The notes: generated by a model not told the origin, from the letters alone. Shown: positions 1,701 to 52,170, counted from the stretch's first letter. The stretch is DNA of 64,000 nt from a bacterium (GCA_016708315.1 JADJGC010000024.1:26638-90637), one strand, 5' to 3'. A program made the numbers and translations.

Positions 1701-2870
<1,170 letters not shown>

Positions 2871-2899
2871 ATTTCTACCTCGTCCTTGGGTTTTCCTAC

Positions 2900-7296: not shown

Positions 7297-7304
7297 GATG
7301 CGTC

Positions 7305-9793: not shown

Positions 9794-9795
9794 CG

Positions 9796-13750: not shown

Positions 13751-13753
13751 TCC

Positions 13754-26767: not shown

Positions 26768-28271
26768 AGCGCTTTCTTGTAACAGCAAGAATTATACCCC
26801 CGAGAATGGTCATCGCAAGGCAAATCTTTGCAAGGACAGCGCCGTGGCGACGGAATAACGTATCGCCCATCGGCGGGCCGATTTTGCCGGTGAGATAAGT
26901 GCGACCGCCGAGTTGGGTTTTGGCAACGACGCGGCCATAGGGATCGAAGATGCCGCAGATTCCGGTATTCGCGGCGCGGACGATCCAGACGCGATTTTCG
27001 ACGGCGCGAAACACGGGAATATAGAAATGCTGGTAGGGTCCGGCCGTCTCGCCAAACCAATCGTCGTTGGTAATGACGGTGAGAAACTCGGCGCCCTTGT
27101 TGACCATTTCGCGGACAAACTCCGGGTAGACGACCTCGAAGCAGATTAATGTTCCGAACTTGCGGCCATGCGACTCAAAAGTGACGATACTGTCGCCCGG
27201 GTGAAAGTCGGAGATATCGAGCGCGAGGCGCTCTTTGACGAACTCGCGGAACTTGGCGATAGCGGTGATCTTCTCGGCATAAGGCATGTGCTCGCCAAAA
27301 GGGACAAGCTGAAGCTTGTTGTGCGGTGTCGGGAGCATGCCCTTGTCTGGTGAGAAGAAGAACGCTGAGTTATAGTACTTGCGCACACCCTCCGGTGAGC
27401 GCGTCATATAGAGCGCGCCGGTCATGATATCGACGTTTTCGCGACGGGCGATTGATTCGATCCAGGAGATGTAGGGACGCTCAAGATTCAAATACATCGG
27501 CGCTGCGCTTTCGGGCCAAATCAACAATTGCGCGGAATCGGCAGCTTGGGCGCTTAGTTCATCATAAGCGACGAAGTTGTGATCAGCCTTGCCGTTTTGC
27601 CATTTCTCATTGACTGGAATGTTGCCTTGTAATGCCGCCACAGAGAAGTCAGGCTCGAGCGGGTGTATGCGAGTCACGCCCCAGATGTAGGCTCCGCTGT
27701 AAAGCACGATTGCGGTGATAAAGAGAACGCTCGAGAGAATCATCCGTCGAAGGTTGGCATACGCGAAGTAGAGGATCAATCCAATGATGCAGACGAAGAA
27801 AGTCACGACGGCATCGCCATTCAGTTCAGCAAGTTGGATGATCGCAATGTTTGATGCCTGAGTGTAGGAGATGTTCTGCCACGGGAACGAAACCTGCGTC
27901 AGCGAGCGCGAGTATTCCATCGCGACCCACAGTATTGGCAGTGACCAAAGACCGGCACGGCCGTAGCGCTTTGTGGCTTCACCTGCAAGACCGCCAATAA
28001 CGGCGTAATACAGCGAATGGAGCAGGACCATCAGGATGACACCGACGACATTGACATAGACGACCCAATAGAGCGTCAGTACTGCCGTGATGACACCAAA
28101 AACGTAGCCGCTGCGGAAGCCTTCTTTGAATCCGAGTCCGCGAATCGAAGCGGCAAAAATCGGCACAAAAAAGTAAGAGAGAATCCAGAACGGCAATGGC
28201 TCAAATGCTAAACTGAAGAAGAGGGCAGAGATTATAAGAACAACGGTTCTTTGAGGGAGCTTAAATCGCAT
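26760..28271 (-). CDS. lnt: Apolipoprotein N-acyltransferase
   Basis: N-terminal polytopic membrane domain plus a C-terminal CN-hydrolase domain (LLIWPESAAP, C in GTLICFE). Confidence 0.85.
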   Translation of the reverse strand: MRFKLPQRTVVLIISALFFSLAFEPLPFWILSYFFVPIFAASIRGLGFKEGFRSGYVFGVITAVLTLYWVVYVNVVGVILMVLLHSLYYAVIGGLAGEATKRYGRAGLWSLPILWVAMEYSRSLTQVSFPWQNISYTQASNIAIIQLAELNGDAVVTFFVCIIGLILYFAYANLRRMILSSVLFITAIVLYSGAYIWGVTRIHPLEPDFSVAALQGNIPVNEKWQNGKADHNFVAYDELSAQAADSAQLLIWPESAAPMYLNLERPYISWIESIARRENVDIMTGALYMTRSPEGVRKYYNSAFFFSPDKGMLPTPHNKLQLVPFGEHMPYAEKITAIAKFREFVKERLALDISDFHPGDSIVTFESHGRKFGTLICFEVVYPEFVREMVNKGAEFLTVITNDDWFGETAGPYQHFYIPVFRAVENRVWIVRAANTGICGIFDPYGRVVAKTQLGGRTYLTGKIGPPMGDTLFRRHGAVLAKICLAMTILGGIILAVTRKRYV

Positions 28272-35588: not shown

Positions 35589-38500
35589 TTAGAGCTGGCG
35601 AACTTTGGTCCGCAAATCGAGGGCTTCGCGTATCTTGACCAGGAATGTACGCATCTGGAAAGGTTTGGCGATGTATCCGAGGATACCATCCTGGAGAAAT
35701 TCCTGAATATCCTGATCGCTGAAGCCGGACATGATGAGAACTTTGACGTCAGGATTGAATTTCTTGAGAGCTGCAAAGGTATCGCGACCGTTCATTTTCG
35801 GCATCATCATGTCGAGCAGAACAAGATCGATGGCGTTCATACCGGTACGATAGAGTTGAACGGCTTCTTCGCCATCTTTGCAGGAAACGACCTTGTAGCC
35901 CGCCTTGGTGAGCATTCTCTCGGCGAGATTGCGAACGATGTCTTCATCATCGACGAGCAAAATGCGCTCGCGACCATCGACTTTGATTTCGGTAATTTCA
36001 GCCGCGCTCGGAAGCGCTGTACCTTCCAACACCGGGAAATACAAAGTGAAGGCTGAGCCTTTACCGACGCTGCTGGCAACCTCGACACATCCGGCGTGGC
36101 TCTTGACGCAACCGTAAACTCCCGCCAAACCAAGACCGGTACCCTTGCCCTGTTCTTTGGTCGTGAAGAATGGATCAAAGATGTGCGAGAGAATCTTGTC
36201 CTCAATTCCGACACCGGTATCGGATACAGTAATGGAAATGTATTCGCCGGGTCCACGCTCCAGCGAATGACGGTTACAATAGTCAGCGTCGAGATTGACA
36301 TTGCGGGTAGTGATGATTAGTCGGCCACCATCGGGCATGGCATCGCGGGCATTGACGCCGAGGTTGAGAATAGCACTCTGGATCTGCGACGGGTCGCCCT
36401 TGACAAAACTTTGCGACGCAGAAAGCTCTGTTTGAATTTCAATCCGACGGTCGATGGTGTGTGAAAGGATAATCTTGACTTCATTGATTGCATCATGAAT
36501 ATCCATCGGAACAGCGAGGAAGTTGCCCTTGCGCGCGAAAGCGAGCAACTGACTGGTGAGATCGGCGGCGCGCGAAGCGGCACGGATGATTTCGCCGGAG
36601 TAGTCTTTCAGCTTTGAATCGTCGGCTGCTTCGAGACTGATCAATTCGCCAAATCCGCGTATACCGGCGAGAAGATTGTTAAAATCGTGGGCAATTCCGC
36701 TCGCAAGCCGCCCGACAGCCTCGAGTTTCTGCGCTTGGCGAAGTCGTTCTTCGAGTTCGGCCTCTTTGGTGACATCGCGTTTGACAGCGACGAAATTGAT
36801 GACTTTGCCGGCTGCATCTTTAATTGGCGAGATTGCGCATTCTTCTTCATAGAGAGTACCGTTCTTGCGCTTATTGGTGAATCTTCCCACCCAGGGTTCG
36901 CCGGCGCGCAAGGTGGTCCACATATCCCGGTAGTACTCGGCGGATTGCACACCGCTCTTAAGAATTCGCGCGTTCTGACCAATGACTTCTTCGCGGCTGT
37001 ATCCGGAGACATTCACAAAAGCAGAATTGACGTAAATGATCTTGCCGTCGATGTCGCTGATGACGATCGACTCGGTTGCTTGTTCGACCGCTTTCGCAAG
37101 CTGCGAGCGTTCGGTTTCGATTTCGCGTCGATCGGTGATATCACGCGAGTTGAAGACTATAGCGCCGACATGCGGATCATCAAGCAGTTGCGGCCAATCG
37201 TGTCGAGAATGCGCCAACTGCCGTCTTTGTGGCGAATGCGCAATTCTGCAGAAACATCGCCGCCCTTGATGAGAGCGCGCCGCATAATCTCTCGCACGCG
37301 TCGGCAATCGTCGCGATGCAGGCGCCTGAAGATGCTGGTGCCTTTGAGCTCGTCGGCACTGTAGCCGAGCACGCGTTCCACGGACGGGCTCAGGTAGATG
37401 AACTGTCCGTTGATATCAAAGAGTGTGATTACGTCAGACGAGTTATCGATGAGAGCACGGAAATGCTCTTCGCGTGACTGCAGCGCTTCCTCGGCGTGTT
37501 TCTGCTCGCTGATATCGGCAATGAACCCTTCGAGGGCAACAACCCTGTTCTCTTCGTCTACAACTGCGCTGCCCTGTTCCCAAACGAACTTGATCTCGCC
37601 GTTGCGTGTGATGAGACGATAGGTGAGCCGGTACGATTCACGTCGTTCGATGCCTCGTTGCACTTCGTTCCAGACCATTGTGCGATCATCAGGATGGATT
37701 AGATCATTGTATTGGACCGACCCGCCAATCTGCATCTCAGATGGGGTGTAGCCGGTCAATTGACGACAACCTTCACTGACGAATTCCATCGGCCAATCGG
37801 GGGTGTTCTGGCATCGATACGCCATTCCTGGAAGATTCCCGAGGAGAGCGGACACAGATCTCTGCTGATCGCGCAATTTTGCCTCTGCAAGTTTGCGCGC
37901 GGTGATGTCTTCGAATACGGTAACGAAGTATCCTTCTCTGGGACTATAGGCAGAAATCCAGAACCAGCGACCAAGCTCGGGTGTTTCGCTTTCAAACTTG
38001 ACTGTCTCGCCATTGAGCGCGACGCGGCCATACTTGCCGATCCAATTTTCCTTGGCGGATTCGATGCCGGGGATGACTTCGGTAACGCATCTGCCTATTA
38101 AGTTTTCGCGTTTGAGTCCAGTCATTTCCTCAAAGACAGAGTTGACCTCAAGAAATATGTAGTCGATGGGATTGCCGCTCGGATCGAGGACTATCTTGTG
38201 GAGTGCAAAGCCATCGATCAAGTTTTCGAACAAAGAACGATACTTCTCTTCGCTTTCGCGCAACGCATCGTGAGATATCTTCTCGCTGGTAATCGACTCG
38301 GTAAAGACGATGATGCCGCCGATTGAATCCTGACTGGTTCGCCACGGACTAACAATGAATCGTATCCAACCTACTGTACCGTCAGCGCGGATGATCCTTT
38401 CTTCAGTGCTTTCAACGGTCTCTCCCGCCATGGCATGACGGTAGATATCACGCCAGCGTTCACTGGTCTCCGGGAAGAATTCGAATTGAGAATGTCCAAT

Positions 38501-40036
38501 AACGCCCTGATCGCGCAGCCGATATTCCTCGAGCCACGCAGTCGTGGCAAAGAGGTAGCGCATCTGCTTATCGAAGATTGCTATCGCTGTCGGCGTGTGC
38601 TTAAACACCAGCCGGAATCGTTCATCGCTTTCACGCAAAGCGGCCTCGGTGCGCAGCTTGTCGGTGATATCAAAAATCGTCGAGTACAAGTAGTCGCGCC
38701 CGTCGAGACTGAGCGGACTCGAGTGAACCTCTACCTGTCGGACTTCACCGGACGAGAGTCGGTGGTCGAATATGAATCGGTTTCGCTGCTCGCCGCTGGC
38801 GGTGCGCATTAGATCGCGCACTTCTATTTCAGGCAGTGTGTTGATGTCCCAGACTTTTAGGGAGCGCAGTTGCTCGACCGAGTAGCCATAGAAGCTTGCC
38901 GCTGCGGGGTTCGCATCGATGATCGTACCGTTTGCAGGATCAATCACGAGTTTGACAGCTTCGTTCTTTTCGAAGAGTTGGCGGAATCGCCGTTCACCCG
39001 CTGCGTGGCTTTCTGTGAGCCTTGTGCGCTGCAGGTATTGGGCAATCTGTATTCCAATTCCGCTGACTGTCTGGAGCAGGTCGGTGTCGATACTATACGA
39101 CTCTATACTGTAAAGCGTAAAAATGCCGCCATCGACAGTGCCGTCAGAAATCGGGAATGACAGGCTGGTCTTTAGCCCGAGTTTTGCTGTAGCTTTACGA
39201 CGCTCTATGGGGTCAGAATCGACGACAGTTGCTGTCCAAAGCGGTAAACCGCCGGTCCAAACCTTTCCTTGTGTCATCTGGGCTCGATCCAACTGCAGCG
39301 TGCGGGTTATGGCGACAAATTCGTCTGTCGATTTGAGATTTTCAGCGCACCAGATTTGCGAAATGCGCAGTTGGGGACTGCCTTCTACCGGAATCCAGTG
39401 CTCACAGATTTGCCAGCCCAACTCCTTGCCAATGGCTTCAAGCGTTGACAAGATTGCCGAATCCGATGCTTTTGCAGAAGATAAGATGTTTGCGACAGTG
39501 TGTTGGGCTTTGAGATGTTGATGTCGCGTGTAGACTTCGGTGACACATTCGGATCGAATAGTCGTGAGGATCAGTTCCTCGCCTTCGGAGGTTTTGACTA
39601 TGCGGCTATCTTCCTCAACTCGAACTTGCACACCATCAACGCGATAAATTACATACTCGGTTCTAAACGGAGTACGGTGGTGGATTACAGAGTCAAAATA
39701 TTCGACAACCTGATCACGATGCAATTGATGGATGCAATCGAAACGGAGTTGGGGACATTTCTGCAGTTCTTCAGCGGAGAAGCCAAAAACGGCGGTTGTC
39801 GCTTTGTTGGCGTAACGGACTTGCGCGCCATCAAGGCTGAACAGAATGTGAACATCCCGCAGGTTGTCGAGAATAGCCTTGATGATAGCTCCGTTCCTAA
39901 ATCTTTTAGCCCTTTGGTCGGAGTCGGAGGTGAGTGCGAAACTTCGCTTTTCAGATGCTGGGTCGGTTCCGACAGGCAACCAACATTGTGTGTTTTCCTC
40001 TTGAATTATCGGAAACGCATCAATAGACGTTAGCAA
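35589..40036 (-). pseudogene. Giant multi-PAS/GAF hybrid sensor histidine kinase (HisKA + HATPase + C-terminal receiver), interrupted by a single-base frameshift inside a PAS domain near 37183-37197. Read as two ORFs (959 aa and 572 aa) overlapping at 37157-37307.
   Basis: About 8 PAS/PAC modules and one GAF in the upstream ORF. Downstream ORF has H-box AHDFNNLLAGIRGF, HATPase motifs DTGVGI/GTGLGL and a receiver domain (LLVDDE...LLDMMMP). Frame A ends ...RHKDGSWRILDTIGRN-CLMIRMSAL* while frame B continues ...LLDDPHVGAIVFNSRDITDRREIE, which is the continuation of the same PAS/PAC fold. Inserting one C after AAC in GGCCGCAAC|TGCTTGATGATCC fuses them. Confidence 0.7.
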
Positions 40037-41130: not shown

Positions 41131-43803
41131 ATGAGCGGACAGGAAATTCCCAAGCAATATAACCCTTCCGGCGTGGAAGACCGCCTGTATGCGGACTGGC
41201 TCGCCAAGGGATACTTCCACGGCAAGGTTGATTCGCCGAAGAAGACATATAGCATTGTCATACCACCACCGAATGCGACAGATGTGCTGCATCTGGGCCA
41301 TGCGCTGAACAACACCCTCCAAGATATCATGATTCGCTGGAAGCGCCTTCAGGGCTTCGAAGTGTGTTGGCTTCCGGGCAGCGACCATGCCGGTATTGCG
41401 ACACAGGTTGTCGTTGAGAAGCTGTTGGTCAAGGAAGGCACTTCTCGCCGCGAAGTTGGCCGCGAAGAGTTTGTCCGTCGAGTTTGGGAGTATGTCGGCG
41501 CCAAGAAGGCACGCATCATGGAGCAGTTGCAGAAAGTCGGCTGTGCCTGTGATTGGTCGCGCGAGCGATTTACGCTTGATGAGCAACTTTCGGAAGCGGT
41601 GAAGGAAGTTTTCATCCGCTTGCACGAAAAGAATCTGGTCTACAAAGGCAAATACATCGTCAACTGGTGTCCGCGATGTCAGACTTCCCTGTCGGACGAC
41701 GAGGTCGAGCACCAGAGCCGAGTCTCGAAGCTGTATCATATCAAGTACAAGCTCAAGGGGCAGGATGTCTACATGATTGCCGCAACTACACGTCCGGAGA
41801 CGATGCTTGGCGACACGGCATTGGCAGTCAATCCCAAGGATGAGCGTTACCAGAAGTACATTGGCAAGACGGCGATTCTGCCGATCCTCGACCGTGAGTT
41901 GGCGATCGTCGCTGATGACTATGTTGATATCGAATTCGGTACGGGTGTCGTCAAAATCACACCGGCGCACGATCCGAATGACTTTGAAGTTTCTCAGCGT
42001 CATGATCTGGAGAAGATCAATATCCTGAATCCGGACGGTACGTTGAACGAAAACGCTGGCAAGTTCAAGGGTCAGGATATCAAGACGGCGCGCAAGTTGG
42101 TTCTGGAAGAACTCGAGAAGAAGAGCTTACTCGCCAAAGTTGAAGACTACGAACATTCGGTCGGTACTTGCTATCGCTGTTCGACCGTTGTCGAACCTTA
42201 CCTTTCGGAGCAGTGGTTTGTCCGCATGAAACCGCTGGCGAAACCGGCGATTGAAGCTTTGAAGAACGGGCAATTGCGTTTCCATCCCGATCACTGGTCG
42301 AAGACATATCTCTATTGGATGGAAAATATTCGCGACTGGTGCATTTCGCGCCAGTTGTGGTGGGGACATCGCATACCGGTGTACTACTGCCGCGAATGCA
42401 ACGAAGAGATGATTCTCAAACAGGCGCCGACTCAGTGCCGCAAGTGCAACAGCACGGATGTCTATCAGGAAGAAGATGTTCTCGATACGTGGTTTTCCTC
42501 GTGGCTGTGGCCGTTCTCGACATTTGGCTGGCCGCAGGATACTCCGGATTTACGCAAGTTCTATCCCACCGATTCACTGTTTACGGCGAGCGAGATTATT
42601 TTCCTGTGGGTCGCACGCATGGTGATGGCTGGATATGAATTCACGGACAAGCTCGTTTTCAACGATGTCTATATTCACGGTACGGTTCGCGATGCTCACG
42701 GGCAAAAGATGTCCAAGTCGAAAGGCAACGGCATCGATCCGATCGAAGTCATTAATCAGTATGGCGCGGACAGTATGCGTTTATCGTTGATTCTCTCGAC
42801 ACCGGAAGGCCAGGATCCGAACATTGCGATGAATACCTTCGAGCTGGGACGCAATTTCGGCAACAAGCTGTGGAATGCTTCACGATTCATCCTGATGAAT
42901 ATCGGCGACGACCTTGGCGAGGGCGACCTTGACACGATGCCGATTTCCGACAAGATGCCGCTGATGGATCGCTGGATTCTTTCGCGACTCAATGAGACGA
43001 TTAAGATCACCGGTGATTCGCTGACGGAGTTCAAATTCAACGCCGCCGGCAAACAGCTCTATGATTTCGTCTGGCACGACTATTGTGACTGGTACATCGA
43101 ACTGGTCAAGACGCGACTATACAACGATGACGATCCGGCGGATAAACTGCTCGCCAAACGGGTTACCGGCTATTGTCTGAACAACATTCTGATTCTGCTT
43201 CATCCATTCGCGCCGTTTATCACGGAAGAGATTTGGCATTTGCTGCACAAACTTCCGGAAGGCCAAGAGTCAATTCTCAACGCGAAGTATCCTGTCGCCG
43301 ACGAGAAGTTGATCGACCTGCAGTTGGAAGAGATGATGAACAAGCTCCAGCGCGTCGTCAATGCGATCCGCAATATTCGCGCGGAAATGAATGTTCCGCC
43401 GTCGAAGCGCGCCGAAGTGCATCTCAAGATCACCGATACTGCTCTGCGTCAGACGCTGGAAGCCAATCAGAACTATATCGTCAATCTCGGCAAGATCGAG
43501 CGGCTCGTCATCGGCGAAGATGTCAAGAAACCGCCGTTGTCAGCTTCGGCAGTGATTCCTTCGGTTGAGATCTTCATTCCGCTGGCTGGATTGATCGATA
43601 TCGATATGGAGCGCGCGCGTCTTCAAAAAGAGCTTGAGAACATAACGGGTCTTCTGGAGAAAACTCGCAAGAAGCTTGCTAATCGCGAATTCGTTGATCA
43701 GGCGCCCAAGGCGGTTGTCGAGCAACAACAGGCGAAGAAAAAAGAGTACGAAGATATCGTTGAGAAGATCAATGCCAACCTTGAGCAGTTGCTGGGATGG
43801 TAG
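41131..43803 (+). CDS. valS: Valine--tRNA ligase
   Basis: HIGH motif (PPPNATDVLHLGHAL), KMSKS motif (KMSKSKGN), editing domain and C-terminal coiled coil. ATG at 41131 with GGAAGAGAG upstream. The track ORF starts 15 nt earlier. Confidence 0.95.
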   Translation: MSGQEIPKQYNPSGVEDRLYADWLAKGYFHGKVDSPKKTYSIVIPPPNATDVLHLGHALNNTLQDIMIRWKRLQGFEVCWLPGSDHAGIATQVVVEKLLVKEGTSRREVGREEFVRRVWEYVGAKKARIMEQLQKVGCACDWSRERFTLDEQLSEAVKEVFIRLHEKNLVYKGKYIVNWCPRCQTSLSDDEVEHQSRVSKLYHIKYKLKGQDVYMIAATTRPETMLGDTALAVNPKDERYQKYIGKTAILPILDRELAIVADDYVDIEFGTGVVKITPAHDPNDFEVSQRHDLEKINILNPDGTLNENAGKFKGQDIKTARKLVLEELEKKSLLAKVEDYEHSVGTCYRCSTVVEPYLSEQWFVRMKPLAKPAIEALKNGQLRFHPDHWSKTYLYWMENIRDWCISRQLWWGHRIPVYYCRECNEEMILKQAPTQCRKCNSTDVYQEEDVLDTWFSSWLWPFSTFGWPQDTPDLRKFYPTDSLFTASEIIFLWVARMVMAGYEFTDKLVFNDVYIHGTVRDAHGQKMSKSKGNGIDPIEVINQYGADSMRLSLILSTPEGQDPNIAMNTFELGRNFGNKLWNASRFILMNIGDDLGEGDLDTMPISDKMPLMDRWILSRLNETIKITGDSLTEFKFNAAGKQLYDFVWHDYCDWYIELVKTRLYNDDDPADKLLAKRVTGYCLNNILILLHPFAPFITEEIWHLLHKLPEGQESILNAKYPVADEKLIDLQLEEMMNKLQRVVNAIRNIRAEMNVPPSKRAEVHLKITDTALRQTLEANQNYIVNLGKIERLVIGEDVKKPPLSASAVIPSVEIFIPLAGLIDIDMERARLQKELENITGLLEKTRKKLANREFVDQAPKAVVEQQQAKKKEYEDIVEKINANLEQLLGW

Positions 43804-43837
43804 CGACGCGGCGACTTCGACGCTTTAGTAACCTGAC

Positions 43838-44632
43838 CTACCGACCGATGTAACGACGGATTCCGACCCCGATTCCGGCCTCGAACGAACCGGTGTCTTC
43901 GCGAACAGTCGACCAGCGAAGATTGACATCAAGCGACGACGACTTGTCCAGCCGTATCCTGAACTGGTGAGTCAAACCACCTCTATGGTATCCACCGAAT
44001 GTAAAGGCGTGGTACATATTGAACTTCCGTCCTACCGGAAATGCCAATCCAAAATTATAGGCGCCGCCACCTGAATTCAGAGGCAGGTTCTCGTTTAGAC
44101 TAATGCCTAAGTGCATTTTGTCTGCTTTCCCGACTCGAATGTGACCGGTAATGTGCGGCATGAAATCAATCTCATCATTGAAATCACGCGGATAGCGACC
44201 AATCAATACACCTACGCCGATACCCTCATCTTCGCCTTCGTAACTAATACTGGGCGTTACCACCGCAAATGTCTGTCGTCCGACATGTTGGTCAAGATAC
44301 TTCCCCTGTTCAACATCATAGTTGCTGGAGGATGCGAGTGTAATGTCGCTGTACCATAACGCGCCGGTTACCCCTACGACAAAGGGCGATCGGGTTCTTT
44401 GCGGCACTCGCATGTACAGAGCTGCTGCGCCTTCAACGAACGTGTTGTCGACAGTACGGGGGGGACCATCGCAGCCTTCGATAACGGAAGTATATTTCCC
44501 CGTGCCACCATACAGCCCATAAACTATATCGGTCTGATTCTCGTCGCCGGAGTCAATTCCAATCGGCAGAGCGAGGACGGCGCAGACTTGAAAGAGGCGT
44601 TTACACTTCGAAGCGAATGATGATAACAACAT
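43838..44632 (-). CDS. Hypothetical secreted/outer-membrane protein (Gly/Tyr-rich; possible beta-barrel)
   Basis: N-terminal hydrophobic signal. Alternating-residue composition. No recognisable catalytic motif. Confidence 0.35.
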   Translation of the reverse strand: MLLSSFASKCKRLFQVCAVLALPIGIDSGDENQTDIVYGLYGGTGKYTSVIEGCDGPPRTVDNTFVEGAAALYMRVPQRTRSPFVVGVTGALWYSDITLASSSNYDVEQGKYLDQHVGRQTFAVVTPSISYEGEDEGIGVGVLIGRYPRDFNDEIDFMPHITGHIRVGKADKMHLGISLNENLPLNSGGGAYNFGLAFPVGRKFNMYHAFTFGGYHRGGLTHQFRIRLDKSSSLDVNLRWSTVREDTGSFEAGIGVGIRRYIGR

Positions 44633-44656
44633 TGGTCCCCCAATGTTTAGAGTGGT

Positions 44657-45028
44657 TTAGATTTCAATATAGACGATTCCATCGACGACATCAACAGGAT
44701 AAGTCTTGAGCTTGGCCCAGGCTTCGGTAAGGCACTCTCCCGTCGTGATGTCATAACGCCAGCCGTGCGCTGGGCAAGTGATGATGGTGCCGTCGATTTT
44801 GCCGTTGGCGATTGAGGCTCGCATATGTTTGCAGTCAGCTTCGAGTCCGTGCAATTTGCCATTCAGACAGAAGACTGCGACATTACGGGCAAGAATCTTG
44901 AGGGACTTGACTCCCCCTTCTTTGATTTGGTCCTTATGGCAAACTTTGAGTCTCATACTTCGATCAAGAATATGATACCGTTTATGGCCGATCGCCACCT
45001 GTAATTCTTCGAGAGCGAAAATAGCCAA
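44657..45028 (-). CDS. Small Rieske [2Fe-2S] ferredoxin-like protein (NirD-like)
   Basis: CxH (CKHMRA) and CxxH (CPAHGW) Rieske ligands 17 residues apart. Confidence 0.7.
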   Translation of the reverse strand: MAIFALEELQVAIGHKRYHILDRSMRLKVCHKDQIKEGGVKSLKILARNVAVFCLNGKLHGLEADCKHMRASIANGKIDGTIITCPAHGWRYDITTGECLTEAWAKLKTYPVDVVDGIVYIEI

Positions 45029-45224
45029 AAAGTGCGACGATTTTCATGCAACGCACTCCACAACAACAGCTTACATCGACCGAATCTTAAATAGAGGTCA
45101 ATTACGTAGTTAAAGGAGGCAGAATTGAGTCTCGATATGGGATATCGCCGACACGTCCGAGCTGTATCTCTATGTCTGCGTTTCAATTGAATCAGTCGAG
45201 AAACTGTTCAAGGAGCCAGAAATA

Positions 45225-45262: not shown

Positions 45263-45627
45263 ATTAAGTAGTACTTCGCAGTACTTCAACAACTCTAAGA
45301 CATTTAATAGAATTTACGGTGTTCGGTGGTATGCAAACAGGCACCAGAGAATCCATGTTGCGCAAGCAAACTCTCAGTTGTGGGTTCGTGTCGTTTGTTC
45401 AACCTCGCCGGTAACTTTTTGAGATTGGAGAATATCGGGAATCTTAGGTAAAGCGCTGCAAGTTCATTTTCATACGCACGTTGCGTCCTCTCATATCCTT
45501 TGCACGTTTTCCCCCGCCGTAACGGCATTCCGCGATAGTTGATCCAATCAGAATTAGAATCGAAATGTGTCACATTGTGAAAGAATATAAGTCCTCTGCA
45601 GAACCTTTAGAAAACATTGGAGTCAAA

Positions 45628-48600
45628 ATGTCTAAACAGCTGACCAAGCTTATGATGCTTGTCATCATCGGAATGTGTTGTTTGACAATCACGCCATCGG
45701 TGTTTGCCGCCGGTGGAAACCCTGATCTTCCTGACTCGGTAATGGCGCTGATGAACAAAACTGCGCTGACCGGGGAACCATCGTTGCAGTACATATTCGA
45801 CAGCCTCGGATATGACATCAACGTTGCCACCGACGAAACCGGTATGGAGACCTTCTGTACAACGCCGGGACAAAATCTGGCGACAATTGTTATTGAAGTC
45901 GCCGGCTCCGCGGCAACTGCTCGCTCTGGTTGGTATGTTGCCAATGACACAACTCCGCTTTATCAGCTGTTTTCCGGCGGTGATGATCCGGGCGACTCGG
46001 TAACCTTCTCTGTTTCCGGAGGTGACTCCATCGGATTCTGGATGAAGCCGAGAATCGCACCAGACACCAACCGCACTTGGTACACGCAGAATTATCTCAA
46101 CTATGACGGATTTAACCACGCCAAGGTATTTCGTACCGGCGTTCCGCATGAATTCATCGTGGCTTTTGAGGACTTGCCGAACGGTGGAGACACGGACTGG
46201 AACGACTTGGTGTTCAAGGTCCGCTTCTCAAATCAGGCGCCGGTGATTACTCTCCCGGCCGATATCAATGTACTCCAATGTTCGTTGGCACAGATTTGTT
46301 TTGCAGTTAACGCTTCCGACCCCGATTGCCAGGGCGACACGATTACCGTCACCAAGCAATCAGGTCCGGGTACTTTCACACAGATCAAGCAGAAGGGTCC
46401 GGTCAGCACCAACTTCTGCTGGACTCCGGCGGCTGCAGGGACTTATCAGTTTGTTTTCAAGGTTAAAGACGAACTGAACGCTACCGATTTTGACACTATC
46501 AATGTAACGGTTACTTTGAATACGGCACCGGTTGCCAACGCAGGACGCGACTCCACCCTGTTCCAGTGCACACCGGCTCCGATTTGCATAACCGCTTCAT
46601 GCACCGATGCAAACAGCAATTTGTCGACCTGTCAATTGGTCTCAGGTCCTGGCACCTACAATGGTTCGACGATCTGTTTCACTCCCGCCTCTTCGGGAAC
46701 TTACACCCTTGTATTGAAAGCTACGGACGCGTGCGGATTGATCGACTATGATACTTCAGTCGTCAATGTCACACTCAATCAGGCTCCGATTGCGAATGCG
46801 GGTAATGACTCGACTCTCTCCCAGTGCACACCGGCACCGATTTGCGTGACTGCATCCTGCAGTGACCCGAACGGTAACCTGTCGACCTGCCAGTTGGTTT
46901 CAGGTCCGGGCACGTACAATGGCTCAGCAATTTGCTTCACACCGGCGGCGTCAGGTTCATACACCTTCGTGTTGAAGGCGACGGATGCTTGCGGATTGAC
47001 AGACTTTGATACTTCCGTTGTCAATGTGACTTTGAATCAGGCGCCAATTGCAAATGCGGGTAATGACTCGACACTCGCGCAGTGTACTCCCGCACCGATT
47101 TGCGTGACTGCATCTTGCAGCGACCCGAGCGGTAACCTCTCGACCTGCCAGTTGGTTTCCGGTCCGGGTACGTACAACGGCTCAGCGATCTGCTTCACTC
47201 CGGCAGCATCAGGTTCATACACCTTCGTGTTGAAGGCGACGGATGCTTGTGGTCTTACGGACTTCGATACTTCAGTAGTCAATGTGACACTCAATCAAGC
47301 ACCAATTGCGAATGCGGGCAACGATTCGACGTTGTTCCAGTGTACAGCGGCGCCGATTTGCGTGACTGCTTCCTGCAGTGACCCGAATGGTAACCTGTCG
47401 ACCTGTCAGCTTGTCTCTGGTCCGGGCACTTACAACGGCTCAGCGATCTGCTTCACACCGGCGGCATCAGGTTCATACACCTTCGTGTTGAAGGCGACGG
47501 ATGCTTGCGGATTGACGGACTTCGATACTTCAGTAGTGAATGTCACTCTTAATCAGGCACCGATTGCTAATGCCGGCATCGATTCGACGTTGTTCCAGTG
47601 TACTGCTGCTCCGATTTGCGTGACTGCATCCTGCAGTGATCCGAACGGTAACCTGTCGACCTGCCAGTTGGTCTCCGGTCCGGGCACCTACAACGGCTCA
47701 GCGATCTGCTTCACACCGGCGGCATCAGGTTCTTACACCTTCGTGTTGAAGGCGACGGACGCTTGCGGATTGACGGATTTCGATACGTCTGTAGTCAATG
47801 TGACTTTGAACCAAGCACCGGTTGCGAATGCGGGTAACGATTCGACACTCGCACAGTGCACTCCGGCACCGATTTGCGTGACTGCTTCCTGCAGTGATCC
47901 GAACGGTAACTTGTCGACCTGTCAGTTGGTCTCTGGTCCGGGCACTTACAACGGCTCAGCGATATGCTTCACACCGGCGGCATCAGGTTCATACACCTTC
48001 GTGTTGAAGGCGACGGATGCTTGCGGATTGACCGACTTCGATACTTCAGTAGTGAATGTCACACTCAATCAGGCGCCCGTTGCAAACGCTGGAAGTGATT
48101 CGACACTGTTCCAGTGCACGGCGGCTCCGATTTGCGTGACTGCGTCCTGCAGTGATCCGAACGGTAACCTGTCGACTTGTCAGCTTGTCTCTGGTCCGGG
48201 TACTTATAATGGCTCAGCGATCTGTTTCACGCCTGCGGCATCAGGTTCATACACCTTCGTGTTGAAGGCGACGGATGCTTGCGGGTTGACGGACTTTGAT
48301 ACTTCAGTAGTCAACGTGACTCTCAACCAGGCACCGGTTGCGAACGCCGGCAACGATTCGACGTTGTTCCAGTGTACACCCGCACCGATTTGCGTGACTG
48401 CATCCTGCAGTGATCCGAACGGTAATCTTTCGACCTGTCAGCTTGTCTCCGGTCCGGGCACCTACAACGGCTCAGCGATTTGCTTCACACCTGCGGCATC
48501 AGGAAGCTACACCTTCGTGTTGAAGGCGACGGATGCTTGCGGTCTTACGGACTTTGACACATCGGTAGTCAATGTCACACTCAATCAAGCACCGGTTGCG

Positions 48601-51600
48601 AATGCCGGCAACGATTCGACATTATTCCAGTGTACACCGGCTCCGATCTGTGTGACTGCATCCTGCAGTGACCCGAACGGCAACCTTTCGACCTGTCAGT
48701 TAGTCTCTGGTCCGGGTACCTACAACGGCTCAGCGATCTGCTTCACTCCGGCAGGTGCTGGTGTCTTCACCTTCGTTCTGAAAGCGACCGACGCTTGCGG
48801 AGCAACAGATTTTGACACTTCAGTAGTGACGGTATCACTTAACCAGCCGCCGGTAGCGAGCATGGGCAATGACTCAACGCTCTTCCAGTGCGGTGCAGCT
48901 CCGATTTGTATTCCGGCTTCGTGCTCCGATCCGAACGGTAACTTGTCGACCTGTCAGCTTGTCTCAGGTCCCGGTTCCTACAACGGCTCTGATGTCTGCT
49001 TCACTCCGGCTGGCGCTGGTGTCTTCACCTTCGTTCTGAAAGCGACCGACGCTTGCGGAGCGACGGACTTTGATACGGCAGTCGTGACGGTAGCACTCAA
49101 TCTTCCGCCGGTAGCCAATGCAGGACGCGATTCGACGCTGTTCCAGTGTGCTCCGGCGCAGATCTGCATCACGGCAGGCTGCAGTGATCCCGATGCCAAT
49201 CTTACCAATTGCGAATTGACTTCCGGTCCGGGAACGCTTAACGGCGGCGGCATCTGCTTCACGCCGGCAGCTTCCGGAATCTATACCTTTATAGTGAAAG
49301 CGACTGATGCTTGCGGTTTGACCGACTTCGATACCTCGGTAGTCAACGTCACGCTGAATCAAGCTCCGGTTGCGACGGTCGGAAACGACTCGACCTTGTT
49401 CCAGTGCACACCGGCTCCGATCTGTATCGCTGCCGCTTGCAGCGATCCGAACGGCAACTTGTCAACTTGTCAGTTAGTCTCAGGTCCGGGCACCTACAAT
49501 GGCTCGACGATCTGCTTCACGCCGGCATCTTCGGGAAGCTATACCTTGGTTCTCAAAGCCACGGATGCTTGCGGATTGACGGACTTCGATACGTCAGTCG
49601 TCAATGTCACACTTAACGTGGCACCGATTGCCAATGCTGGACGCGACTCGACGTTGTTCCAGTGTACACCGGCACCGATTTGCATTGCGGCTTCGTGCAG
49701 TGATGCCAATGCAAACTTGTCGACCTGCAACTTGATCTCCGGACCGGGCACCTACAACGGTTCGCAGATTTGCTTCACACCGGCGGGTGCAGGCACTTTC
49801 ACTTTCGTACTGCAAGCAACCGATGCTTGTGGAGCGACTGATCTTGATACTTCGGTGGTGACGGTGACAACAAACGTTGCGCCGATTGCAAACTGCCACG
49901 GCGATACAACAATTTTTGCGTGCAGCCTTGCGCAGATCTGCATTCCGGGATTCAGCGTAAGTGACGCCAATAACAACATCACAACGACGGTTGTCACGGG
50001 CGGCACACTCAATGCCGGATCAGTCTGCTTGACTCCAGTTGTTGGAGCGAACAATATCAGACTAATCGTTACGGACGCCTGCGGACTGGCGGATACTTGC
50101 CAGACAATCGTGACCGTAGTTCTCAATGCCGCGCCGGTAGCAAATGCCGGAGCTGATCAAAATCTGCTGTGCCAGACACCTGGGCAGTCGATCTGCTGGG
50201 CGGCAAGCTGTACCGATCCGAATAGCAACCTGACAGATTGCTCGCTGGTCTCGGGTCCGGGTACTTACAACGGCACACAGATTTGCTTCACACCAGCGTC
50301 GAGCGGCACCTTCTCATTCGTGCTTAAAGCAACCGATGCCTGCGGAGCTACTGATTTTGATACCGCGGTAGTCACCGTCAGATTGAACAACGCCCCGACG
50401 GCTTCGGTAGATCAGGGTGACACCACGATCTTCTGCAGCGAAACTGGCCCGATGCAGATTTGCGTGCCTTTCAGCTATGCTGACATGAACGGTAATGTGC
50501 AGAGTGTCAGTGTCAATCCGGCGCCGACGACGTTGAACTTCGCCAACGGCTCCGGGCTGTTCTGCTTCACACCCGCGAACGCATTTGATGATATCTATAG
50601 CTACACGGTTACAGTGACCGACAGTTGCGGATTGATTGCTCAATCGACGCACACCCGCTGGGTACGCTTCATCGATTGTGATACGGCGACGTGCTTTATT
50701 GTCAAGACCGAGAAGACGCACAATACCCTTCAGGGTCACTATGAATTCGTTTCAGTCACCATCGAAGGCGCCGGTCAGGAATTTGGCGGCTTTGATTTCT
50801 TGATGAGTTACGACAACTCTGCATTGAACTTCGTCGAAGCGAAGCCCGGTGACATGCTGACAACTTGCGGTTGGGAGTATTTCACCTATCGCTACGGCGC
50901 ACAGGGTAATTGCAACGGTTCGTGCCCGTCAGGATTGGTCAGAATCGTTTCGGTTGCCGACGCCAATAACGGCGCCAACCATCCGAGCTGCTTTGGTCCG
51001 GCGTTGCCGTCACCGCAAGAGTTGTTTGTATTGAAGTTCCTCGTCACCAATGACAGAACGTTCGAATGTCAGTACGTACCGGTCAGCTTCTTCTGGCTCG
51101 ATTGCGGCGACAACGCGATTTCGACTGTCACCGGCGACACGCTGTATCTCGAAAAGCGCATCTTCTCATTCGAAGGCAACGCAGTTTGGGATGAGTTTGA
51201 TGACGCGCTCTTCCCCGAGCACTCACGTCCGTTTGGTGTCGGAGCGTTGGACTTCTGTATGCTTGGCGACAAGTATGAGCCGATTCGCTGTATCGAATTC
51301 TGGATAGGCGGTATTGACATCGTCTGCGCCGATTCAATTGACGCGCCCGGCGACTTGAACCTTAACGGTATCGGATACGAAATCGCCGACGCCGTTATGT
51401 ACACGAACTACTTCCTGTACGGTCTCGCGGCTCTTGATCCGGATCCGATGCGTCGCGAAGCACAGATTGCGGCATCGGATGTCAACCGCGACGGCAGCAG
51501 CCTTTCGGTCGGCGATCTGGTTTACCTGATCCGAGTAGTTGTCGGCGACGCCCTTCCATTCAATAAACTGACGCCGTTTGCCAATAGCGTCATCGTGAAG

Positions 51601-52170
51601 CAGGAAGGCAGTGTCGTTTCGAGTGATGCCAATGTCGAAATCGGCGCCGCGCTGTTGGTATTCAATGTCGGCGAGAGCTATTCAATTAGCAGCCTCACCG
51701 ATATGACAGTGTCCACGAACGAAATGAACGGACAGGTTCGGGTGCTGATCTACGACATCTCGTCCAATTCAATCGCAGCCGGTTCTACGGCGCTGCTCGA
51801 AGTGACCGGAGATGCCGAACTGGTAAGCGCTGATGTTGCCGATTACAATGGCAGCATGATGACAGCACGCCTTGAGAAGAACGTTCTGCCGACAAGCTTC
51901 GCTCTTGGCCAGAACTATCCGAATCCGTTCAATCCTGAGACGGTGATTGAATTCGCCCTGCCGAAATCGGCGAATGTGATGATTACCGTTTACAACACTA
52001 CCGGCCAAAAAGTCGCGACGGTGTTGAACAATGTCATGAGCGCAGGCCGCCATCAAGTGAGATGGGACGGCAAGGACAGCGGCGGCAACACGGTGTCCTC
52101 AGGCGTTTATCTTTACAAGTTCGAGTCCGAGGGATTCAGCGAGACCAGAAAGATGTTGCTGGTCAAGTAG
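45628..52170 (+). CDS. Giant (about 2180-aa) secreted repeat protein, a T9SS cargo. Contains a signal peptide, a DUF4114-like domain, about 17 tandem 80-aa cysteine-containing Ig/HYR-like repeats, a cohesin-like domain, a dockerin-like double Ca-binding segment and a T9SS C-terminal sorting domain.
   Basis: Start MSKQLTKLMMLVIIGMCCLTITPSVFA with GGAG 9 nt upstream. DUF4114-like block (...DTDWNDLVFKV) about 45930-46220. Repeats (consensus APVANAGNDSTLFQCTPAPICVTASCSDPNGNLSTCQLVSGPGTYNGSAICFTPAASGSYTFVLKATDACGLTDFDTSVVNVTLNQ) 46240-50640. Cohesin-like (HYEFVSVTIEGAGQEFGGFDFLMSYDNSALNFVEAKPGDML...) about 50690-51170. Dockerin-like (DLNLNGIGYEIADAVMY... DVNRDGSSLSVGDLVYLIRVVVGD) about 51340-51550. 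T9SS tail (LGQNYPNPFNPETVIEFALP...VYNTTGQKVATV...GVYLYKF) 51900-52167. Confidence 0.8.
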   Translation: MSKQLTKLMMLVIIGMCCLTITPSVFAAGGNPDLPDSVMALMNKTALTGEPSLQYIFDSLGYDINVATDETGMETFCTTPGQNLATIVIEVAGSAATARSGWYVANDTTPLYQLFSGGDDPGDSVTFSVSGGDSIGFWMKPRIAPDTNRTWYTQNYLNYDGFNHAKVFRTGVPHEFIVAFEDLPNGGDTDWNDLVFKVRFSNQAPVITLPADINVLQCSLAQICFAVNASDPDCQGDTITVTKQSGPGTFTQIKQKGPVSTNFCWTPAAAGTYQFVFKVKDELNATDFDTINVTVTLNTAPVANAGRDSTLFQCTPAPICITASCTDANSNLSTCQLVSGPGTYNGSTICFTPASSGTYTLVLKATDACGLIDYDTSVVNVTLNQAPIANAGNDSTLSQCTPAPICVTASCSDPNGNLSTCQLVSGPGTYNGSAICFTPAASGSYTFVLKATDACGLTDFDTSVVNVTLNQAPIANAGNDSTLAQCTPAPICVTASCSDPSGNLSTCQLVSGPGTYNGSAICFTPAASGSYTFVLKATDACGLTDFDTSVVNVTLNQAPIANAGNDSTLFQCTAAPICVTASCSDPNGNLSTCQLVSGPGTYNGSAICFTPAASGSYTFVLKATDACGLTDFDTSVVNVTLNQAPIANAGIDSTLFQCTAAPICVTASCSDPNGNLSTCQLVSGPGTYNGSAICFTPAASGSYTFVLKATDACGLTDFDTSVVNVTLNQAPVANAGNDSTLAQCTPAPICVTASCSDPNGNLSTCQLVSGPGTYNGSAICFTPAASGSYTFVLKATDACGLTDFDTSVVNVTLNQAPVANAGSDSTLFQCTAAPICVTASCSDPNGNLSTCQLVSGPGTYNGSAICFTPAASGSYTFVLKATDACGLTDFDTSVVNVTLNQAPVANAGNDSTLFQCTPAPICVTASCSDPNGNLSTCQLVSGPGTYNGSAICFTPAASGSYTFVLKATDACGLTDFDTSVVNVTLNQAPVANAGNDSTLFQCTPAPICVTASCSDPNGNLSTCQLVSGPGTYNGSAICFTPAGAGVFTFVLKATDACGATDFDTSVVTVSLNQPPVASMGNDSTLFQCGAAPICIPASCSDPNGNLSTCQLVSGPGSYNGSDVCFTPAGAGVFTFVLKATDACGATDFDTAVVTVALNLPPVANAGRDSTLFQCAPAQICITAGCSDPDANLTNCELTSGPGTLNGGGICFTPAASGIYTFIVKATDACGLTDFDTSVVNVTLNQAPVATVGNDSTLFQCTPAPICIAAACSDPNGNLSTCQLVSGPGTYNGSTICFTPASSGSYTLVLKATDACGLTDFDTSVVNVTLNVAPIANAGRDSTLFQCTPAPICIAASCSDANANLSTCNLISGPGTYNGSQICFTPAGAGTFTFVLQATDACGATDLDTSVVTVTTNVAPIANCHGDTTIFACSLAQICIPGFSVSDANNNITTTVVTGGTLNAGSVCLTPVVGANNIRLIVTDACGLADTCQTIVTVVLNAAPVANAGADQNLLCQTPGQSICWAASCTDPNSNLTDCSLVSGPGTYNGTQICFTPASSGTFSFVLKATDACGATDFDTAVVTVRLNNAPTASVDQGDTTIFCSETGPMQICVPFSYADMNGNVQSVSVNPAPTTLNFANGSGLFCFTPANAFDDIYSYTVTVTDSCGLIAQSTHTRWVRFIDCDTATCFIVKTEKTHNTLQGHYEFVSVTIEGAGQEFGGFDFLMSYDNSALNFVEAKPGDMLTTCGWEYFTYRYGAQGNCNGSCPSGLVRIVSVADANNGANHPSCFGPALPSPQELFVLKFLVTNDRTFECQYVPVSFFWLDCGDNAISTVTGDTLYLEKRIFSFEGNAVWDEFDDALFPEHSRPFGVGALDFCMLGDKYEPIRCIEFWIGGIDIVCADSIDAPGDLNLNGIGYEIADAVMYTNYFLYGLAALDPDPMRREAQIAASDVNRDGSSLSVGDLVYLIRVVVGDALPFNKLTPFANSVIVKQEGSVVSSDANVEIGAALLVFNVGESYSISSLTDMTVSTNEMNGQVRVLIYDISSNSIAAGSTALLEVTGDAELVSADVADYNGSMMTARLEKNVLPTSFALGQNYPNPFNPETVIEFALPKSANVMITVYNTTGQKVATVLNNVMSAGRHQVRWDGKDSGGNTVSSGVYLYKFESEGFSETRKMLLVK
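46240..50640 (+). repeat. Coding tandem-repeat array, 240-bp period, about 17 units. Units 3-10 (about 46750-48700) are nearly identical at the nucleotide level.
   Basis: The phase-locked 240-nt recurrence of gtcaatgtgac(a/t)ctcaatcaggc(a/g)cc(g/a)attgc(g/a)aatgc... was read directly. Antisense ORFs of 81-141 aa within it are artefacts of the repeat. Confidence 0.85.

Follow-up and report, generated by a model that had tools for sequence, protein, structure and literature searches.

The gene at the center of this study encodes a predicted surface protein and contains a long tandem array of coding repeats, and the question that it raises is whether such an array is a hotspot of copy-number change and assembly collapse or a structure whose units can be counted reliably. 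The array is considered here within the window, by which we mean the whole 64-kb stretch of DNA analyzed, and in comparison with a second strain, other species and a paralogous gene.

Results

Organization of the gene and its repeat array

The gene for the 2180-aa protein was called from the ORF list together with Pfam and NCBIfam domain matches and lies on the plus strand at 45628..52170 (100% match, identical to NCBI MBK7093279.1); its mechanical ORF begins farther upstream, with an ATG at 45565. The tandem coding array of the original prediction was borne out, in frame and within a single ORF, by TRF, by unit spacing and by an HMM built from the units. TRF placed the tandem array at 46524-49786 (score 3264) and found no other repeat over 44-53 kb, 13 in-register copies were spaced at exactly 258 nt (86 codons) over 46516-49869, and the unit HMM delineated 17 Ig-like domains from 46228 to about 50664, in agreement with the 17 units that had been claimed over 46.2-50.7 kb. 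The period, given as 240 bp, was measured at 258 bp.

The features of the gene are collected in Table 1. The translated N-terminus is hydrophobic and ends ...VFA/AGG when the translation is read by eye. D1 contains the best Big_9 stretch at aa 223-315 and is 90% identical to D1 of a sister species (L007). In the C-terminal module, the cohesin-like match (50749-50862) scored 20.2 bits, under the Pfam cut-off of 24.1, and the dockerin-like match (51382-51498; Dockerin_1, E = 0.14) scored 12.8 bits against a cut-off of 22.9; judged by these scores, the module is a resemblance only and not a cohesin-dockerin module. The sorting domain at the C-terminus scored 38.2 bits with TIGR04183 (cut-off 23) and 31.5 and 41.9 bits with Por_Secre_tail (PF18962) and FlgD_ig, respectively (cut-off 27 each). 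Minus-strand ORFs inside the array (48964-50739) were set aside as spurious products of the repetitive sequence, and a promoter and terminator scan returned nothing above chance.

Table 1. Features of the gene for the 2180-aa protein, in window coordinates.
Feature	Position	Strand	Basis or remark
Putative signal peptide, MSKQLTKLMMLVIIGMCCLTITPSVFAAGG	45628..45711	+	Inferred by eye from the translation
DUF4114 domain, closing the ~200-aa N-terminal "head"	46063..46227	+	Pfam PF13448, 37.5 bits (cut-off 27)
D1, divergent first Ig-like domain, 96 aa	46228..46515	+	Unit HMM match
D2, first 258-bp unit	46516..46773	+	
D3-D9, seven "central" units	46774..48579	+	Block flagged by the original prediction
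D10, hybrid unit	48580..48837	+	5' two-thirds central-type, 3' third peripheral-type
D11-D14, peripheral 258-bp units	48838..49869	+	Individually matched 1:1 by orthologues in other species
D15-D17, three divergent Ig-like domains	49870..50664 (starts 49870, 50122, 50383)	+	Unit HMM
C-terminal module	50665..51915	+	Weak cohesin-like and dockerin-like matches, below Pfam cut-offs
T9SS type A C-terminal sorting domain, FlgD_ig-like fold	51916..52155	+	TIGR04183, Por_Secre_tail, FlgD_ig
Mosaic zone versus second strain (L069): patchwork of tracts common to other units of the gene and to paralogue B	46644..47720	+	Mismatch map, painting
Tract 95-99% DNA-identical to paralogue B (L070)	48322..49869	+	Sharp end at D14/D15 junction

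Fold and probable route of export

Profile matches to the array were obtained for Big_9 (227 bits, cut-off 23.6), PKD_4 (161 bits, cut-off 27) and K319L-like_PKD (105 bits, cut-off 27), and the unit was predicted to form a beta-sandwich (pLDDT 93.9). Because solved structures searched by sequence yielded only a weak match, to KIAA0319L (E = 0.045), a fold search was used; the best solved matches were the PKD-like domains of the collagenases ColH/ColG, Epp and the PKD domains of AAVR (adeno-associated virus receptor), at TM 0.65-0.71, and the unit model superposed on 4jgu, 4u6t, 6aem and 6ihb_R at TM 0.68-0.71. Rib domains were also among the matches. The units thus resemble the PKD-like, Big_9 and K319L-like PKD families (PF17963, PF18911 and PF22352) in their beta-sandwich and in scores far over the cut-offs, and their PVANAG linker motif aligns with KIAA0319L, but they share only 18-24% sequence identity with solved PKD-like domains and carry six cysteines each, which is unusual for these families.

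The same window encodes a PorU-like Peptidase_C25 protein (18105-20483), and a second product (24908-26788) matches the PorZ N-terminal propeller. We infer that the 2180-aa protein is exported to the surface by the type IX secretion system (T9SS) and, from its domain content, that the Ig-like array would form a stalk between its head and its sorting tail.

Divergence of the units in DNA and in protein

Units 3-10 (D3-D10, 46774-48837) had been described as near-identical, with a handful of substitutions in each. As protein, this description fits D3-D9, which are 94-99% identical pairwise (1-5 differences per 86 aa), but not D10, which shares 88-92% of its protein and 78-83% of its DNA sequence with D3-D9; as DNA it fails for D3-D9 as well, since pairwise identity was 83-91% (9-17% different), corresponding to 24-45 differences over 258 positions, nearly all of them synonymous. 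Among these seven units 71 of 258 columns were variable, 58 of them third codon positions, and Nei-Gojobori estimates gave a mean dS of 0.69 (range 0.31-0.97), a dN of 0.031 and an omega of 0.045, compared with 0.06 in the C-terminal region. Between orthologues in this and the nearest species (L004), dS was about 1.5. Because omega is similar in the array and in the remaining protein and within-array dS lies below between-species dS, protein identity combined with DNA divergence calls for no special process, and a paradox of protein homogenized without its DNA was ruled out.

Exact repeats reach 68 nt at most, both in the gene and anywhere in the window, and no k-mer of at least 71 nt was repeated. 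Exact repeats of this length do not provide the presumed substrate for slippage or for de Bruijn collapse, so that neither the expansion and contraction by slipped-strand mispairing nor the misassembly proposed for this array finds support; collapse is unlikely for the same reason, and the units differ enough for 150-nt reads to be unique. Phase variation, a further suggestion, is not indicated: there is no short simple repeat, and since the unit is a multiple of 3, gain or loss of a unit alters length and not reading frame.

Tests for exchange among D3-D9 inside the window gave a borderline PHI result (p = 0.067), with 58% of informative site pairs failing the four-gamete test. Synonymous differences among units were clustered and not evenly spaced, codons 63-70 forming an invariant run (p = 0.003). 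Codons 22-26 and 63-72 are invariant in DNA, but constraint at the nucleotide level was rejected as the cause, as synonymous sites there vary freely across species. With PHI borderline, the evidence for exchange is that of the strain and paralogue comparisons described below.

Comparison with a second strain

A second strain of the species (L069), assembled independently, provided the sole full-length within-species comparison and is collinear with the window over 24.5 kb at 96.6% identity. Its gene is 6544 nt long compared with 6543 nt in the window, and both encode 17 domains with no 258-bp indel between them; the length polymorphism across strains expected in the original prediction was therefore not seen. 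The L069 assembly has flaws of its own, including a 1-nt frameshift in the array gene, many 1-nt indels and split neighboring genes. Neither long identical stretches nor, in this one comparison, a unit number varying within the species, as would mark an unstable array of identical DNA, was found.

Within the gene, divergence between the two strains is 7.6-12% in D2-D9 and 0.5-2.5% in the remainder. At 12-15% per 500 nt, the array's 5' half is the most divergent kilobase in the 24.5 kb, and the 43.6-45.1 kb stretch is equally divergent, which suggests that the divergent 5' half could be a piece of a more distant allele acquired by ordinary between-strain recombination. Within D2, no mismatches in 128 nt were followed by 31 in 130 nt (p = 1e-10), and in both L069 and a JGI metagenome contig (L071) D6-like sequence stands in place of the 3' half (46644-46773). 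That contig, from short reads, matched the L069 version of the D2 junction and upstream sequence with 1 mismatch over 1,100 nt, compared with 19 of 84 for the window, and ends 212 nt into D2; it was the one short contig that a metagenome scan gave. At 182 of the 191 positions at which the window and L069 differ, the base is found at the same position in other units (121 expected), L069 D3 is closer to window D7 (94%) than to its positional partner D3 (88%), and perfect 48/48 tracts in the painting of the two strains derive from other units of both paralogues. Judged by these alignments, the array units have been shuffled by recombination over an uncertain span of time, and a third dataset bears out one of the breakpoints. 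The recombinational change that had been predicted thus holds to the extent that the array is clearly a substrate for homologous exchange, but not as a change in unit number between these two strains.

Paralogue B

The DNA of paralogue B was taken from the copy in the sister strain (L070), where it lies about 190 kb away. D10-D14 are 97-99% identical in DNA to paralogue B, with a dS of 0.07-0.10, and dS rises to 2.5 just downstream of D14 across a boundary narrower than 60 nt. At the syntenic locus of L004, a B-type head is joined to an A-type tail. In the window's own genome, paralogue B lies on the same 295,928-bp contig and is split into two ORFs (MBK7093432/MBK7093433).

Relatives and domain number

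Nine other full-length genes encoded 17 (six genes), 16 (two) or 18 (one) domains, and the range of 16-18 is maintained in species that share 81-97% identity with the window in valyl-tRNA synthetase (ValRS). The peripheral units are 1:1 orthologous, D11-D14 matching single L004 units at 86-95% amino-acid identity, and the central units are more alike within a genome than between genomes. In the sister species represented by L007, the central units, nine of them in L007, are 92-98% identical and contain 170-nt exact repeats. L002 and L007, which are assemblies of one strain, have 10 and 17 domains, exactly 7 units apart, so that large changes, real or artefactual, do occur where units are more uniform. 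L002 appears to be a short-read assembly. Ns were present inside the array in three SPAdes scaffolds.

Discussion

The observations are probably best explained by an in-frame 258-bp array that encodes the 17-domain PKD-like/Ig-like stalk of a T9SS surface protein in a Zixibacteria-related host, is changed by occasional homologous exchange and not by slippage, and is correctly counted at 17. The seven central units would have arisen, or last been homogenized, after the split from the nearest sampled sister species, and strong purifying selection (omega about 0.045) would afterwards have kept the protein while synonymous sites drifted far apart. The array would be altered now and then by homologous exchange, in the form of short-tract gene conversion or unequal crossing-over, both from one of its units to another and with units of the paralogue (~190 kb off in the sister strain). 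Such exchange would reshuffle silent variants and could swap whole heads between paralogues while domain number is held at 16-18, presumably by selection acting on that number. With its distinct units, the copy number of 17 in the window is very probably correct. The protein itself is of an ordinary kind, with a well-resolved evolutionary history.

An unstable array of near-identical DNA, altered by slippage or recombination, possibly phase-variable and with an unreliable count, is an unlikely description of this locus. The sister species, with its 92-98% identical units, 170-nt exact repeats and same-strain assemblies 7 units apart, fits that description, and the Ns in three scaffolds, the end of the JGI contig inside D2 and the spread of 16-18 domains among species are compatible with it; the window's units, however, are 9-17% apart in DNA with at most 68 exact nt in common, the second strain also has 17 domains and no 258-bp indel, a unit that is a multiple of 3 makes frame switching impossible, and a within-array dS of 0.3-1.0 implies units that have long been un-homogenized. 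It is very unlikely, on the other hand, that the units are old duplicates evolving independently under purifying selection without later exchange. Such a history would accord with an omega that is the same for the central units (0.045) as for the remaining protein (0.06), with a within-array dS below that between species and with the non-significant PHI test, but it does not accommodate the sharp mosaic breakpoints between strains, the presence of donor bases in other units for 95% of the differences, the closeness of L069 D3 to window D7, the failure of so many site pairs in the four-gamete test or the sharp-edged, 97-99% identical tract common to the paralogues.

Whether the synonymous differences were themselves selected, as suppressors of RecA-mediated deletion that stabilize a 17-domain stalk length, is distinctly doubtful. 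Protein identity with DNA divergence, the constancy of 16-18 domains across species, the scarcity of long identical runs and the 7-unit loss in the uniform-unit lineage L007/L002 would all be expected, yet the pattern is also what neutral drift would produce at an omega of about 0.05, the invariant run at codons 63-70 is the opposite of what run-minimizing selection would leave, and L007 tolerates units that are 92-98% identical. Least probable of all is that the window and L069 differ in mosaic fashion because one assembler took chimeric paths through the repeats. Each of the two genomes is a metagenome bin, 1-nt indels are numerous in L069, a PAS sensor kinase in the window (~37.2 kb) is apparently split and paralogue B is in two ORFs; against this, the independent JGI metagenome contig carries the L069-type D2 junction with its upstream sequence, and the units are different enough for unique 150-nt reads.

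The stalk protein as we interpret it resembles long T9SS type A cargo with Ig-like repeats, such as Flavobacterium johnsoniae SprB and the large CHU_C-tailed proteins of Cytophaga, in its long Ig-like run and C-terminal T9SS sorting domain; the putative signal peptide and the nearby PorU-like and PorZ-like genes would fit this class. It differs in having no sequence match to the SprB-specific repeats, in its DUF4114 head and weak cohesin-/dockerin-like membrane-proximal module, and in a host that is Zixibacteria-like, not Bacteroidota. A literature search found no paper naming both Zixibacteria and type IX secretion. Giant adhesins with tandem Ig-like "extender" domains and repeat-variable surface proteins, including Marinomonas MpIBP, Salmonella SiiE and streptococcal Rib/alpha-C, are known for arrays of near-identical DNA whose copy number differs between strains. 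As in these proteins, a long run of near-identical Ig-like domains here connects the distal head to an anchor close to the cell and recombination can change repeat number, whereas the DNA is 9-17% diverged, the count is equal in two strains, and export would be by T9SS and not by T1SS or sortase. The within-genome closeness of the central units, the mosaic tracts and the sharp-edged paralogue block are those of concerted evolution by gene conversion, except that homogenization is incomplete here and silent variants are reshuffled, not erased; a wide literature search covering gene conversion and tandem repeats of adhesins gave no specific result.

In annotation and in quality control of assemblies, the array need not count as suspect, since ordinary reads separate its units and a second strain agrees. 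The repeat that does carry risk is the tract of 1.3-1.5 kb that the two paralogous genes share at 97-99% identity; relatives with more uniform units are also at risk, as illustrated by the one that loses seven units in an apparent short-read assembly. The general lesson is that repeat identity in protein predicts DNA instability poorly.

The locus offers a well-resolved case of an array whose protein sequence and length persist as its DNA is reshuffled, and it also illustrates the swapping of heads between paralogues via shared repeats in a poorly studied phylum. A more speculative idea, and one that we hold to be rather improbable, is that the repeat stalk serves as a shared recombination "hinge" in a small family of paralogous surface proteins: through exchange within units that are almost the same as protein, DUF4114 or VWA heads would be swapped onto different tails harmlessly, while silent divergence and selection on length would hold the stalk at ~17 domains, limiting deletions. 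If this were true, the locus would represent a natural form of codon scrambling that allows cassette swapping while limiting deletions.

Repeat array and divergence of its units

The whole array lies inside a single ORF, 45565..52170 (+), of the T9SS surface-protein gene (gene A), whose annotated start at 45628 gives a protein of 2180 aa. An HMM made from the units detected 17 Ig-like domains, numbered D1-D17, so that the 17 repeats over 46.2-50.7 kb of the original prediction were right in count and span. The period had been put at 240 bp, which was wrong: Tandem Repeats Finder returned one array at 46524-49786 with a period of 258, 12.6 copies and 80% matches, a repeat finder gave 13 copies at a spacing of exactly 258 nt, and an LNxAP motif marks unit boundaries once per 86 codons. 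Pairwise unit comparisons were made on the 13 in-register units, D2-D14. Each 86-aa unit throughout 46516-49869 carries six cysteines at fixed codons (18, 24, 29, 39, 54 and 73), which amounts to roughly 100 cysteines along the stalk and suggests disulfide-stabilised domains.

Ig-like domains of the repeat array of gene A
Feature	Position	Strand	Description
D1	46228-46515	+	Ig-like domain
D2	46516-46773	+	258-bp unit
D3-D9	46774-48579	+	Central units
D10	48580-48837	+	
D11-D14	48838-49869	+	
D15, D16, D17	starts 49870, 50122, 50383	+	

Units 3-10, which correspond to D3-D10, had been said to be separated by just a handful of substitutions; for the central units D3-D9 this held in the protein (94-99% amino-acid identity) but not in the DNA (83-91% nucleotide identity, 24-45 pairwise differences per 258 nt). 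Third codon positions account for 58 of the 71 variable columns among these units, 67% of third positions vary across the seven, and mean dS was 0.69 (range 0.31-0.97) with dN of 0.031 and omega of 0.045. The apparent paradox of similar protein with divergent DNA was dismissed on comparison with L004, the closest other species at the syntenic locus. Its valyl-tRNA synthetase (ValRS) has 97% protein identity to that of the window, synonymous sites between the two are saturated (dS ~1.5 for ValRS, aminotransferase IV and aroQ), and the C-terminal region of gene A has a dS of 1.3. The central units and the C-terminal region outside the repeats (0.06) have similar omega, so the pattern needs no more than ordinary purifying selection. 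The within-array dS is well under the L004 values, which dates the origin or latest homogenisation of the central block to after the L004 split. Central units of L004 are themselves 91-97% identical in protein and 80-86% in DNA, and those of L003 and L001 show a similar gap. Protein identity among central units is 94-99% inside each genome versus 83-93% across genomes, and D1 and D10-D17 each have one clear orthologue in the other genomes, the usual signature of lineage-specific expansion or concerted evolution of the central block. A DNA-invariant run at codons 63-70 is clustered beyond chance (p = 0.003). Nucleotide-level constraint was rejected since synonymous sites there are not conserved in other species, and the run is accordingly a local homogenised tract or chance.

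Copy number and assembly

The assembled copy number of the window is very probably correct. Exact repeats reach no more than 68 nt, in the gene as in the entire window; no repeated k-mer of at least 71 nt occurs in the whole window, and at k = 55 just 28 positions are non-unique. The best test comes from a second strain of the species (L069, GCA_964267595.1), which runs collinear with 37614-62162 of the window (96.6% identity) and whose gene is 6544 nt long versus 6543 nt in the window. No 258-bp indel separates the two genes, so that the sister strain also has 17 domains and the length polymorphism suggested for strains was not seen between these two; neither was any evidence found for phase variation of the array. 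An extra G after window 47412 (L069 9793), inside D5, splits the L069 gene into ORFs of 670 and 1516 aa. Many further 1-nt indels in this assembly split adjacent genes, which makes a sequencing error the probable source of the G; L069 has the look of a long-read assembly with frequent errors, produced independently of the window's.

Domain number is also similar among relatives: six other full-length genes (L007, L003, L005, L014, L017 and L069) have 17 domains, two (L004 and L001) have 16 and one (L006) has 18. Gene length is identical (7350 nt) in L005, L014 and L017, though their DNA identity is just 77-91%. The warning of assembly collapse is unlikely to apply to the window array, with its 68-nt longest repeat, but does apply to relatives. 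In a sister species represented by two assemblies of the same strain, the Flye-style contig L007 (9263-11584) has nine central units with 82-98% identity that share exact repeats of 170 nt; L002 (10889-11404) is 100% identical to it on both flanks of the block but shorter by exactly 1806 bp, or 7 units, leaving 10 domains versus 17. Each of the two central units left in L002 combines two L007 units (2/8 and 9/10), with the joint inside a stretch where the parent units are identical. Short-read collapse is the probable cause, and a real deletion, the less probable reading, could likewise leave such a shortfall. Ns interrupt the array in the SPAdes scaffolds of three relatives (L022, L009 and L012), and the sole JGI metagenome contig of the window's species (L071) stops 212 nt into D2. 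The observation as a whole is partly confirmed, and its interpretation partly supported.

Exchange among units and between paralogues

The array is NEVERTHELESS a recombination site, and the recombinational events originally proposed find support, as exchange between units, in the comparison with the sister strain. Divergence between the two strains is 1.2% in the head, 2.4% in D1, 12% in D2, 7.6% in D3-D9, 1.8% in D10-D14, 2.5% in D15-D17 and 0.5% in the C-terminal region, and across 24.5 kb it peaks in two 500-nt bins at 46.6-47.6 kb. Positional unit identities from D2 to D14 are 88, 88, 87, 90, 93, 96, 98, 96, 97, 99, 98, 99 and 98%. Mosaic tracts have sharp edges: the first 128 nt of L069 D2 are identical to window D2, the next 130 nt hold 31 differences (Fisher p = 1e-10), and this 3' part agrees with window D6. 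L069 D3 is closer to window D7 (94%) than to window D3 (88%), its 5' end matching D7 (48/48) and its 3' end D4 (48/48); units of paralogue B, a second gene of this type, also give perfect 48-nt tract matches. Among D2-D14 differences, 182/191 are a base present at the same position of another unit (expected 121), and together they cause just 17 amino-acid changes. For the window alone, incompatibility affects 58% of informative site pairs, but the PHI test is borderline (p = 0.067).

That the mosaic D2 junction is an artefact of one assembly was ruled out by L071, which is independent and reproduces the L069-type allele exactly, with 0 mismatches to L069 over the head, D1 and D2 nt 129-212 versus 19/84 to the window in D2 nt 129-212. 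The timing of these exchanges carries a caveat, since the divergent 5' half of the array could have arrived in one strain inside a more distant allele. Upstream, 43.6-45.1 kb (43614-45113) is likewise 8-10% divergent between strains, where 1-5% is typical; it comprises the Rieske gene and a hypothetical 263-aa gene that has no Pfam or NCBIfam match and is absent from L004.

Paralogue B, with a VWA head, lies ~154 genes from gene A on the same 295,928-bp contig, outside the window, where it is annotated as two ORFs of 984 and 1204 aa (MBK7093432.1 and MBK7093433.1). The sister strain has an intact copy (P0124, 2184 aa, L070 10001-16555), on the same strand as gene A and ~190 kb apart. The alignment of L070 to window 47564-49868 is gapless at 94.8%, and D10-D14 (48580-49869) reach 97-99% DNA identity to it with a dS of 0.07-0.10, equal to the between-strain dS. 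Directly downstream of D14 the paralogues differ by dS 2.5 and dN 0.35, identity falling from ~100% to ~60% in 60 nt at 49869/49870. This near-identity with its abrupt edge indicates recent gene conversion between paralogues. In the syntenic gene of L004 (7877-15013) the VWA head is B-type (90% identity over 560 aa) and the tail is A-type (87-88%). Heads have thus been exchanged between paralogues via the shared array; L003 is B-type over its entire length.

Protein architecture and genomic setting

By Pfam, the N-terminal head matches DUF4114, the repeats match Big_9, PKD_4 and K319L-like PKD very strongly, and the C-terminus matches FlgD_ig and Por_Secre_tail; the T9SS type A sorting domain exceeds the NCBIfam cut-off. 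Cohesin-like and dockerin-like matches between stalk and sorting domain are both under cut-offs. The predicted fold of one central unit is a beta-sandwich (pLDDT 93.9), with PKD-like domains of ColH/ColG collagenase, Vibrio Epp PKD1 and AAVR PKD domains as nearest solved folds (TM 0.65-0.71). These features point to a surface protein whose head is distal and whose T9SS anchor lies next to the cell, with the 17 domains forming a stalk between them. It is identical to NCBI MBK7093279.1, encoded on the 295,928-bp contig of a 'bacterium' MAG; relatives are labelled Zixibacteria or binned under 'Ignavibacteria'.

Gene A is surrounded by chromosomal housekeeping genes (ValRS, MazG, Rieske protein, aminotransferase IV and aroQ/aroB/aroC). 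Candidate T9SS machinery lies at 18105-20483 (+; Peptidase_C25, PorU-like sortase) and 24908-26788 (-; PorZ N-terminal beta-propeller and Reg_prop matches). At 1701-15832 (-), a series of genes on one strand, two Mur ligases and a PASTA-domain PBP transpeptidase among them, resembles a division and cell-wall (dcw) cluster. Two ORFs (35589-37307 and 37157-40036, -; 572 and 959 aa, 150-nt overlap) make up a PAS-rich sensor kinase; in L069 and L002 it is one product of ~1450 aa, and the window's copy is likely frameshifted, either through an indel error or as a pseudogene.

The feature is of an ordinary kind, the repetitive Ig-like stalk of a T9SS surface protein. Its history is well documented: silent sites have diverged, units have exchanged sequence with one another and with a paralogue, and the number of domains has been conserved.
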